64,000 bases of DNA, taken from contig OZ240219.1 of the NCBI GenBank assembly GCA_965197645.1, forward strand, positions 896,001 to 960,000. The letters are read 5' to 3'. Made by a program: the position numbers and the translations under genes. Positions 8,259-8,858 of this stretch are shown here, one piece after another. Under the pieces are notes generated by a model. That model was given only the letters and a program-made list of their open reading frames with translations. It was not told where the DNA came from and did no database searches. Source of the DNA: Dehalococcoidia bacterium (lineage in GTDB: Bacteria; Chloroflexota; Dehalococcoidia; Plut-88900). The first letter of the stretch is position 1. Each line of letters starts with the position of its first letter.

Positions 8259-8288
8259 TTGACAAGCTGAGAAGCCTGAACGTAAGGT
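8259..8288 (+). promoter_or_regulatory. sigma70-like promoter of the second cargo operon
   Basis: TTGACA-18 nt-TAAGGT. Confidence 0.5.
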
Positions 8289-8290
8289 GT

Positions 8291-8470
8291 ACGCGACTTG
8301 ACGGTCATTCGTGTCGTAATCCGGCTGGGCATTCGAGGCAAGGTAAGCCAGAGGGATTTCGCCCTTTCATGCCCCCTCTGGCCCTGCCGGGTTGCGGATG
8401 ACCGTCAAGCACCGAAATCCTGATGGCTCGGAGGGGGCACCAGCTTGTCCCCTTCGCACAAAGGGGGCAC
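8291..8470 (+). ncRNA. Highly structured, potentially bistable 5' leader RNA
   Basis: Mutually exclusive helices: 8297-8309/8397-8409 versus 8370-8383/8425-8439; anti-RBS 8446-8454 can pair with 8431-8439 or with the RBS 8461-8469. Confidence 0.6.
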
Positions 8471-8474
8471 GTGC

Positions 8475-8858
8475 ATGGCGCTCACAGATAATCGGCAAGT
8501 TGCCCGAATAGGTTTCCGTATCGTAGGCCCGCTGATGATGATAGTCACGGCGGGTTTTTTGGTTTTCGGCGGCGTCATCCTGGGGTTTGCCTTGGACAAA
8601 GAAGCACCGCATTTCACCACCAGGCTCTTCGAGAAATATCCCTGGTGCTTCGACGGATACCCCGATCAGATATTCAGCCCTCGCGACTGCCTGGCTCGAT
8701 TCATACAGGCGGAGGCGCATCGCGGGGCGGACTACTGGGACCAACGGCGTCTCCAAGACGAGGCCGACCTACTGGCAATGGATGAAGAGGAACGGGCCGC
8801 CGTTCTTGAAGCCAGGTGGAGCGCCTACCGTCTGTGGAAAGACACGGACGGCCTGTAG
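8475..8858 (+). CDS. Hypothetical membrane-anchored cargo protein
   Basis: 127 aa from ATG 8475, RBS AAGGGGG; N-terminal TM segment. Confidence 0.6.
   Translation: MALTDNRQVARIGFRIVGPLMMIVTAGFLVFGGVILGFALDKEAPHFTTRLFEKYPWCFDGYPDQIFSPRDCLARFIQAEAHRGADYWDQRRLQDEADLLAMDEEERAAVLEARWSAYRLWKDTDGL

Follow-up and report, generated by a model that had tools for sequence, protein, structure and literature searches.

Translational attenuators of the ermC and cat kind have a leader open reading frame (ORF) that is translated from its own Shine-Dalgarno (SD) sequence and overlaps the first of the alternative strands, and C4-type antisense RNAs are separate small RNAs, the loops of which pair with repeated boxes in the leader of their target. 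The ompA and aprE leaders carry 5'-terminal stem-loops that stabilise the mRNA, and type I toxin-antitoxin loci comprise a small hydrophobic toxin, usually of less than 60 amino acids (aa), together with an overlapping or adjacent antisense RNA. In the mobile element IS10, translation is reportedly subject to fold-back inhibition. A structured 5' untranslated region (UTR) is reported to limit translation in the insertion sequence ISPpu9 (PMC8450116). Among the type I toxin mRNAs with hairpins governing access to the SD, metastable hairpins are described for Helicobacter pylori aapA3 (PMC6733600) and a structural switch for the enterobacterial timP mRNA (PMC13000454). Here, we are discussing an untranslated leader of ~180 nt that sits 5' of the near-orphan membrane-protein gene P0001 on an IS1-like transposon of a Dehalococcoidia bacterium (GenBank assembly GCA_965197645.1, contig OZ240219.1, positions 896,001 to 960,000). 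This stretch of 64,000 nt is referred to as the window, and the host genome comprises 3.2 Mb with a G+C content of 61%.

A preliminary description of this DNA had regarded the entire leader as a bistable switch with two exclusive folds. The reading preferred here, to which we assign a probability of about 40%, is more restricted: an element-specific promoter, a constitutive 5' rod and a decoy/anti-SD/SD module would together provide translation initiation that is kinetically open and thermodynamically closed. On the basis of the folding models, the sequence is a plausible but unproven orphan translational-control leader.

Transcription would proceed from the element-specific promoter, with a start probably at ~8295, and the first 113 nt would fold at once into a very stable rod, serving as a fixed 5'-terminal hairpin which protects or marks the mRNA. 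The rod would not be a partner in a two-state switch; translation would be controlled in the last 55 nt. There, the decoy (8431-8439) would capture the anti-SD (8446-8454) first, because it is transcribed before the SD, and the nascent mRNA would have an open ribosome-binding site (RBS). As soon as the first codons are made (to ~8485), the closed form would become the more stable one, with the anti-SD paired to the SD and an outer helix over part of the AUG; reaching it would require the crossing of a barrier of ~14 kcal/mol. The outcome would be a kinetically ON, thermodynamically OFF mRNA, with translation of P0001 being tuned or restricted to young transcripts. It is from the predictions set out below that we infer the use of the promoter, the site at which transcription starts, the sequence of folding events in the cell and any consequence for translation or stability.

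Predicted structure of the leader

That a long structured leader precedes an operon on a transposon had been proposed before and holds; the operon consists of small genes, and inverted repeats and a target duplication mark the transposon. Positions 8290-8480 fold with -94.1 kcal/mol as compared with -73.1 +/- 4.2 kcal/mol for shuffled sequences (z -5.07), and none of 200 shuffles is as stable. The features on which the following discussion relies are compiled in Table 1.

The rod alone (8296-8410) is predicted at -64.7 kcal/mol (z -7.26), a stability reached by 0 of 200 shuffles. In the ensemble computed for 8295-8500, its outer pairs have probabilities of 0.79-1.0 and the rod as such a probability of ~1. 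The helices 8297-8309/8397-8409 (13 of 13 pairs) and 8315-8325/8386-8396 (11 of 11) had been placed correctly in the preliminary description; for a third helix, 8347-8355/8374-8382, all nine pairs are possible, but the minimum free energy (MFE) rod pairs its apex differently, and enforcing this helix costs 6 kcal/mol (-58.6 versus -64.7 kcal/mol). The opposite strand folds less well (-51.8 kcal/mol, z -4.04); this preference of 13 kcal/mol for the + strand is due to the five G-U pairs and argues, within the model, for an RNA that is read from the + strand. When the 64 kb are scanned in 12,778 windows of 115 nt, the energies average -37.0 kcal/mol (standard deviation 7.6, minimum -66.8), and the rod would take second place. 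Raw energy alone is hence not unique, since a coding window goes lower and the genome has 61% G+C; what makes the predicted rod stand out is its z-score against its own composition together with its single-rod shape. It is single-copy in the host genome and begins, at 8297, 1-2 nt past the predicted transcription start at 8295-8296, which in turn lies 7-8 nt after TAAGGT.

The module at the 3' end of the leader is composed of three short strands, and the pairings given for them previously are exact: GAGGGGGCA (8431-8439) with TGTCCCCTT (8446-8454), and the latter with AAGGGGGCA (8461-8469), each form nine of nine pairs, G-U counted. Likewise, AGGGGGCAC is present at 8432 and 8462 as claimed (the window holds a third copy at 59565), and the ATG lies at 8475. 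Each of the two leader copies of AGGGGGCAC is followed by 4 nt and then by TTG (8445) or ATG (8475), 30 nt apart and in frame; this repeated spacing may go back to an ancient duplication around the start codon or may serve the use of two starts. In isolation, the decoy:anti-SD hairpin (1:2) has -18.6 kcal/mol (z -3.38) and the anti-SD:SD hairpin (2:3) -15.1 kcal/mol (z -3.14).

Which of these two hairpins prevails depends, in the calculations, on the 3' end of the transcript. For 3' ends at 8455-8480, the open form has a probability of 0.97-1.0, and the MFE structure is the open one as long as the 3' end does not exceed 8480. For 3' ends at 8485-8490, the closed form has a probability of 0.99, and for those at 8500-8600 one of 0.54-0.88. 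The flip at 8485 occurs because the outer helix 8435-8444/8473-8483 becomes possible. In the ensemble for 8295-8500, the anti-SD is paired with the decoy (RBS open) with P 0.126 versus P 0.866 for pairing with the SD (RBS closed), and the SD is unpaired at equilibrium with a probability of 0.03-0.28. The open and closed states are predicted to be ~1-1.5 kcal/mol apart, a gap that lies within the error of the energy model and shifts with the chosen 3' end. For direct refolding, a heuristic path search gave barriers, to be taken as upper bounds, of 14.1 kcal/mol from open to closed and 22.2 kcal/mol from closed to open on the best path, which at the usual rate prefactors implies that refolding from the open to the closed form takes minutes or longer.

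The proposed bistability can therefore be retained for the last 55 nt with the rod intact, but not for the leader as a whole; two near iso-energetic structures, the general mark of a bistable RNA, are predicted for this local module only. The second fold of the preliminary description, in which the rod is broken and 8370-8381 pairs with 8428-8439, lies 13.5 kcal/mol above the ensemble (fraction ~3e-10). The stem of its 5' hairpin with the loop TTGACG has only 3 bp, the best local fold being -7.6 kcal/mol, and its "complementary loops" turned out to be merely the two strands of the outer rod helix. A pseudoknot combining pairing of strand 1' with the decoy and an intact outer rod was considered and is unfavoured (~-82 kcal/mol before any penalty versus -83.3 kcal/mol for the rod plus hairpin 1:2).

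Table 1. Coordinates of the leader, its parts and the surrounding features in the window.
Feature	Position	Strand	Remarks
IS1-like transposon with cargo	7578..12126	+	4,549 bp; holds leader and operon; single-copy in genome
Copies of the 16-nt motif	7621-7635, 8250-8264, 11809-11823	+, +, -	each ahead of a gene
tRNA-like gene	8114..8202	-	89 nt, long variable arm; tRNA-Leu GAG according to ARAGORN; divergent from leader promoter
Perfect 11-bp hairpin	8205..8230	+	between tRNA-like gene and promoter; matches part of sX6 terminator
Putative promoter P2	8250..8288	+	TATACGGTATTGACA, -35 within; 18-nt spacer; -10-like TAAGGT
5' rod, imperfect hairpin	8297..8409	+	43 bp, 5 of them G-U, over 113 nt
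Upstream ORF (uORF)	8298..8423	+	TTG start, 41 codons, covers rod; open frame 144 aa; predicted only
Strand 1'	8370..8381	+	in 3' arm of rod; complementary to decoy strand 1
Strand 1, decoy, SD-like copy	8431..8439	+	GAGGGGGCA
Outer helix of closed form	8435..8483	+	8435-8444 with 8473-8483; pairs UG of start codon; from MFE structures
Strand 2, anti-SD	8446..8454	+	TGTCCCCTT; complementary to strands 1 and 3
Strand 3, SD region	8461..8469	+	AAGGGGGCA; ends 5 nt 5' of ATG 8475
P0001, first cargo gene	8475..8858	+	127 aa; one N-terminal membrane helix
Cargo ORF	8877-9080	+	67 aa; C-terminal membrane helix; weak match to holin family phrog_689, E 0.009
Cargo ORF, phage-type	9139-9390	+	83 aa; phrog_2201, E 1.6e-12; 360 relatives on viral contigs
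Cargo ORF, membrane	9353-9574	+	73 aa
Candidate small RNA	9781-9895	+	~70-80 nt; TTGACA-17-TAACAT, ~50 nt on a 13-bp terminator-like hairpin, T-rich tail
DDE transposase	10018..10914	+	298 aa; Pfam rve_3 26.4 bits (cut-off 26.5), DDE_Tnp_IS1 22.1 (cut-off 24.1)
Copies of dispersed repeat	14056-14183, 15659-15768, 39443-39532, 39559-39656	+, +, -, -	unrelated to leader

Putative promoter, transposon and orphan status

Regarding the promoter proposed for the leader, the sequence is present, with TTGACA at 8259-8264, a spacer of 18 nt and TAAGGT at 8283-8288, but no more than three of the six positions in the -10 hexamer are those of the consensus. The best available evidence for a real promoter at 8259 is the repetition of its surroundings within the element. 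The 3.2-Mb genome has exactly three copies of the 16-nt motif TATA[CG]GGT[AG]TTGACA, and all of them lie inside the transposon. At each copy, a hexamer of the TA..- or ..AAT-type is found 17-18 nt on, followed by a gene with an SD—the gene with ATG 7693, the leader with P0001, and the gene with ATG 11763 on the minus strand. A looser copy is located at 9589-9598, and GGTATTGACA with at most one mismatch was found six times in the window as against 1.98 expected, four of the six being inside the element. The motif is probably an element-specific promoter or operator, judged by its sequence and distribution. Only one of the three motif promoters, that at 8250, is followed by a long leader, the other two leaders having ~20-30 nt. 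With the promoter at 8259, the implied start is near 8295-8296.

Other signals in the vicinity comprise a transposase promoter-like site of its own (TTGACA-17-TATTAT, 9961-9989), and just upstream of it the candidate small RNA. The perfect hairpin that precedes the leader promoter may terminate the P1 unit upstream, although a scan for terminators did not pick it up. A T-box leader at 58226-58443 on the minus strand (132.3 bits, E 3.6e-29) is the only match to Rfam at gathering score in the window. The region upstream of it, used as a control for the form of promoters, has two TTGACA boxes and no clear -10, and is uninformative.

The location of the leader on a transposon, already proposed in the preliminary description, is borne out by inverted ends, a target duplication and related elements elsewhere. 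The terminal inverted repeats of 19 nt (7578-7596 and 12108-12126) agree at 17 of 19 positions, begin GGTAGTG and read GGTAGTGCCTC..., and the element is flanked by direct repeats of the 8-mer TAGATCCG (7570-7577 and 12127-12134). Members of the IS1 family, as defined in ISfinder, have terminal inverted repeats beginning GGnnnTG and a target duplication of 8-9 bp; by sequence, the ends and the duplication of the present element are of this kind. Both Pfam scores of its transposase are just under the cut-offs. The insertion lies in the final codons of a gene for an InhA-like protease (5595-7595, +), the last five codons and the stop of which are now supplied by the left inverted repeat; without the element, a TGA directly behind the duplicated 8-mer would close this ORF.

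Homologues of the transposase were found in 32 of 301 genomes of the class, the host genome counted. From 20 loci that were fetched, both ends of the element could be located in seven (L212, L214-L217, L224 and L226), with ends GGTAGTGnCTCnnTTTGAA and the same GGTAGTGnCTC... repeats; six of them have perfect 8-bp duplications, and in L216 an offset of one base is needed for the flanks to agree. The seven elements are 2.3-6.4 kb in size, with a very variable cargo and a conserved core of an 81-aa protein (7893-8138 in the present element) and the DDE transposase, the former accompanying the latter in 12 of the 20 loci. Neither the other cargo proteins nor the leader recur in the 20 loci, and no tRNA is found inside the seven related elements. 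The tRNA-like gene scores below the Rfam gathering score for tRNA, its best model being tRNA-Sec with 25.8 bits; it is the second Leu(GAG) gene of the genome and is unrelated in sequence to the chromosomal one.

P0001 itself is supported by a single distant relative. A word-indexed search of 5.8 billion clusters returned only P0001, and a stored database copy, P0003 (137 aa), starts 10 residues earlier, which fits the in-frame TTG 8445. A full HMMER search yielded the relative P0004 (E 1.4e-4 for the library), which in a pairwise comparison is identical at 33 of 95 positions (35%, E 9e-10) and has in common with P0001 the motifs LDxEAP and YPWCFD and an N-terminus beginning MA. This homology indicates that P0001 is real, that the + strand is the coding one and that the ATG start is to be preferred; the overlapping minus-strand ORF 8367-8756 is consequently spurious. 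No family match, be it to a holin or to any other family, was obtained for P0001, no further match occurs in 400 other genomes of the phylum, in 40 relatives or in viral contigs, and a search of the Atlas with P0001 gave no lead (best score 0.79). DNA encoding P0004 was not found in metagenome or genome contigs.

The leader, too, stands alone. No relation to the C4, c4-2 and isrK RNAs, which had been suggested for comparison, was recovered: an Rfam cmscan of 7900-8900 with E <= 10 gave six weak matches, none of them to these families. Within 8259-8477, Rfam 15 has no match at gathering scores, the best overlap, mir-3718 with 17.4 bits (threshold 78), being a match of the generic hairpin kind. 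By BLAST, the leader matches only itself in its own genome and no more than 26 nt (E 0.016) in the 40 relatives, and there was no match in the phage database. Among 80 viral loci, namely those encoding relatives of the 83-aa cargo protein, none matches the leader or the six other island proteins that were compared (five cargo proteins plus the 81-aa companion) by blastn or tblastn. Two structural DNA patterns of the leader gave 0 and 0 hits in viral contigs; the pattern of the SD triple gave 17 loci in metagenome contigs, none related to the leader, and that of the rod ends 66 loci in genome contigs, with similarity extending no further than palindromic 10-mers. A covariance model built on the single sequence found, in 100 loci and the 40 relatives, only weak GC-rich hairpin matches of at most 26.2 bits with many non-canonical pairs. 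According to these comparisons, the leader belongs to no described RNA family. In Roseiflexus metagenome-assembled genome (MAG) contigs, a repeated unit was observed, with variable spacers of ~72 nt between TGACGGTCATC and the reverse complement of this sequence (L118, L121, L126, L132, L149, L151, L162, L175 and L178); it has only the palindromic 10-mer in common with the rod arms.

Weighing of the explanations

Several points weigh against the reading preferred here. The -10 hexamer is poor, and a promoter scan of 7000-10500 flagged five other sites (1.3 expected) and not that of the leader. The lowest energy in the window, that of a coding region inside a 614-codon ORF, is reached by chance. 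The two states of the module differ by less than the accuracy of the model, their barrier is bounded from above only, and all folds were computed without ribosomes or helicases. As no homologue of the leader was found in the collections searched, no helix has covariation support. Furthermore, the listed holders of the stretch include no RNA run; three DNA runs of one study hold it, as contigs, and list no variant within 8259-8477.

Chance has to be considered as well for the arrangement of three strands. When a triple is defined as a strand of 9 nt flanked on either side, at a loop length of 3-10 nt, by a 9-mer with which it can pair (two G-U pairs at most), both strands of the 3.2-Mb genome contain seven, and block shuffles of one strand (n=10) contain 0-4 with a mean of 1.4; roughly 1-3 triples per genome strand are expected by chance, which likewise detracts from the proposed module, as does the frequency of G-run/C-run hairpins in the host genome. 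In favour of the module, once an SD hairpin exists, an additional partner of 9 nt at a distance of 3-10 nt is seldom met with: one strand has 2,733 nine-bp hairpins per 3.2 Mb, as against the seven triples of the whole genome. Two of the six other genomic triples fall in a dispersed repeat. We estimate that a triple somewhere in the genome is unsurprising and that one placed exactly on an SD and a start codon is less expected.

The strongest competitor assumes that there is no regulatory RNA at all. The rod would then be an incidental or DNA-level palindrome in recent, fast-evolving mobile DNA—a cruciform or single-stranded DNA hairpin, two palindromic protein sites 100 bp apart, or the remnant of a recombination site—and the SD/anti-SD/decoy module would be a by-product of a composition rich in G-runs and C-runs, or of the start region having been duplicated in frame over 30 nt. 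In line with this, the leader is a singleton without conservation, DNA parameters likewise yield the hairpin on either strand (z -5.5 and -3.5), and the palindrome TGACNGTCA lies in each of its outer arms (8299 and 8399), exactly 100 bp apart. However, the 43 pairs of the rod go far past two 9-mers, its G-U pairs favour the + strand, and TGACSGTCA is not enriched (36 in the genome versus ~25 expected; 2 in the window versus 1.1 expected). Moreover, the rod begins at the predicted 5' end of a transcript from the element-specific motif. For the module, the number of chance triples and the recurrence of AGGGGGCAC plus 4 nt plus TTG or ATG at in-frame spacing suit an origin without function, as does the abundance of G-run/C-run hairpins in the dispersed repeat, but the leader lies outside this repeat. 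Taken together, a leader without a regulatory role is only somewhat less probable than the reading preferred here.

The dispersed repeat just mentioned is ~130 nt long, rich in G-run/C-run hairpins and has at least 65 BLAST matches genome-wide; that the leader is one of its copies was rejected, since nhmmer --max with E <= 10 gave no match at 8259-8477. Integron attC sites have the outer core sites RYYYAAC ... GTTRRRY and are found in arrays or next to an integron integrase. The ends of the rod read ACTTGAC ... GTCAAGC, with GAC/GTC where AAC/GTT is expected, and no integrase was found in kb 1-20 of the window; the attC reading was rejected. A retron, intron or ribozyme was likewise discarded, there being no Rfam match and no reverse transcriptase gene.

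The hairpins might, alternatively, serve the choice between two starts, TTG 8445 (SD-like GGAGGGGG, 8430-8437; 137 aa) and ATG 8475 (AAGGGGG; 127 aa), and set the ratio of two isoforms of the membrane protein; this idea recalls gene S of phage lambda, where structure-directed initiation is said to set the ratio of holin to antiholin. Hairpin 1:2 hides the first SD and frees the second and hairpin 2:3 does the reverse, both starts being in frame and equally distant from a copy of AGGGGGCAC; yet the extended closed form also pairs part of the first SD (8435-8438), and TTG 8445 abuts the 2:3 stem. The N-terminus of P0003 fits TTG 8445, and the additional 10 residues contain a lysine with the membrane helix next to it, but the only homologue aligns from an ATG-type N-terminus. 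The next gene has a weak holin match and the operon is phage-like, but for P0001 neither a holin nor any other family was matched. Overall, dual-start control is improbable.

Whereas the reading preferred here leaves the rod intact throughout, it could also be imagined that the rod is opened. The fold with the broken rod is a possible triggered state in the model, not a spontaneous one. Strand 1' and its surroundings form 12 of 14 pairs with 8428-8441, the duplex of strands 1' and 1 has -29.7 kcal/mol, and the corresponding inverted repeat (I1, 8370-8397/8412-8439) is the top one listed for the window. Masking the 5' arm of the rod (8297-8356) results in P(1':1) = 1.0 and P(2:3) = 0.99, with the RBS closed. 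A relay of five strands (5' arm of the rod, 1', decoy, anti-SD and SD) could hence be drawn up, in which the rod is a clamp, and its opening or cleavage turns the cargo operon from ON to OFF. Either a double-strand RNase, a ribosome on the uORF or an RNA yet to be found might act as the trigger, co-transcriptional trapping would serve as an additional timer, and the relay might be coupled to the divergent tRNA-like gene. We hold such a relay to be a long shot; if true, it would represent an undescribed class of ligand-free riboregulators carried as transposon cargo.

A trigger acting in trans, be it a protein, an RNA pairing loop to loop or an antisense RNA, that takes the 5' arm of the rod so that strand 1' pairs with the decoy and the SD closes, is very improbable. 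The masking result and the strength of the 1':1 duplex show how it might work, but the untriggered state is far uphill, and the rod is formed before strand 1 is transcribed. The isolated hairpin 8362-8445 has a z of -2.17, with 10 of 200 shuffles folding as well. For the loop-loop or antisense control put forward in the preliminary description, neither a partner nor an antisense promoter was found: the promoter scan flagged no minus-strand promoter in 8200-9000, the duplex of the leader with the candidate small RNA, the only one in the element, is no better than with shuffles (170 of 300 as good), and the Rfam families of such regulators (C4, c4-2, isrK) are not represented.

Least probable of all is ribosome-mediated attenuation, in which translation of the uORF would unwind the rod and a ribosome at its stop codon would cover the decoy, or early stalling would free strand 1', with closure of the SD by the anti-SD in either case: the uORF does span the rod and end 7 nt 5' of strand 1, masking 8410-8439 or 8385-8423 gives P(2:3) 0.99-1.0, and an SD-like AAGGTG (8284-8289) lies 8 nt before its TTG, but AAGGTG overlaps the -10 and would thereby precede the transcript as predicted, initiation would have to be at a TTG, the peptide is without relatives or recognisable features, and the frame which its stop TGA 8421-8423 has in common with P0001 is a 1-in-3 coincidence. 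Selenocysteine read-through of this TGA, with hairpin 1:2 as a selenocysteine insertion element (SECIS), was also rejected, as the upstream peptide lacks protein-like features and relatives; the host genome has a tRNA-SeC.

Relation to described systems

If the leader works as predicted, with the decoy holding the RBS open first and the SD being closed later, it would be a compact, ligand-free, kinetic control of translation, and the cargo of a transposon could bring along its own type of promoter as well as its own post-transcriptional control, here in an uncultured bacterium. It is a single orphan sequence, and no long-standing question is opened by it. The firmer by-products of the analysis are a variable-cargo family of IS1-like elements, the element-specific 16-nt motif and a transposon-borne, atypical tRNA-like gene.

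With translational attenuators such as ermC and cat, the leader shares four to five mutually exclusive strands that end in the SD, as well as an upstream ORF over the first of these strands. In contrast to these, its ground state is predicted to be ON and not OFF, no resistance gene lies downstream, and the uORF starts with TTG and has no SD inside the predicted transcript. Similarly, P1 C4, P4 CI and isrK are found on mobile elements and use repeated short complementary boxes for the control of a downstream gene, but the present locus yielded no separate gene for a small RNA that could pair with the leader through its loops. As to ompA and aprE, the likeness consists in a hairpin that is located 1-2 nt from the 5' end as predicted and has a strong SD after it, and by this analogy the leader may work like the 5'-terminal stabiliser hairpins; it differs in that the rod, with its 43 bp over 113 nt, is far longer, and in that the 5' end is a predicted start site.

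ISPpu9 and reportedly IS10 offer the parallel of a mobile-element mRNA in which structure of the 5' UTR occludes the RBS. In these cases it is the transposase that is controlled, whereas the present leader precedes cargo, the transposase having its own promoter-like site.

The aapA3 and timP mRNAs provide a close mechanistic likeness: a long structured 5' UTR, a short C-rich strand that sequesters the SD without any ligand, and exposure of the SD set by the order of co-transcriptional folding and by competing interactions. As described, metastable hairpins make the SD of these mRNAs inaccessible while transcription goes on; in the present leader, the hairpin formed first would leave it open. 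Their products are peptides of ~30-50 aa as compared with 127 aa for P0001, and no antisense RNA gene was found beside the leader. With this size of the product and no antisense promoter flagged, a type I toxin-antitoxin locus was rejected, and the two systems are related to the leader neither in sequence nor by family. By analogy, then, the leader resembles the broad class of SD-sequestering leaders with competing hairpins, and would differ from aapA3 and timP in opening first and closing later.

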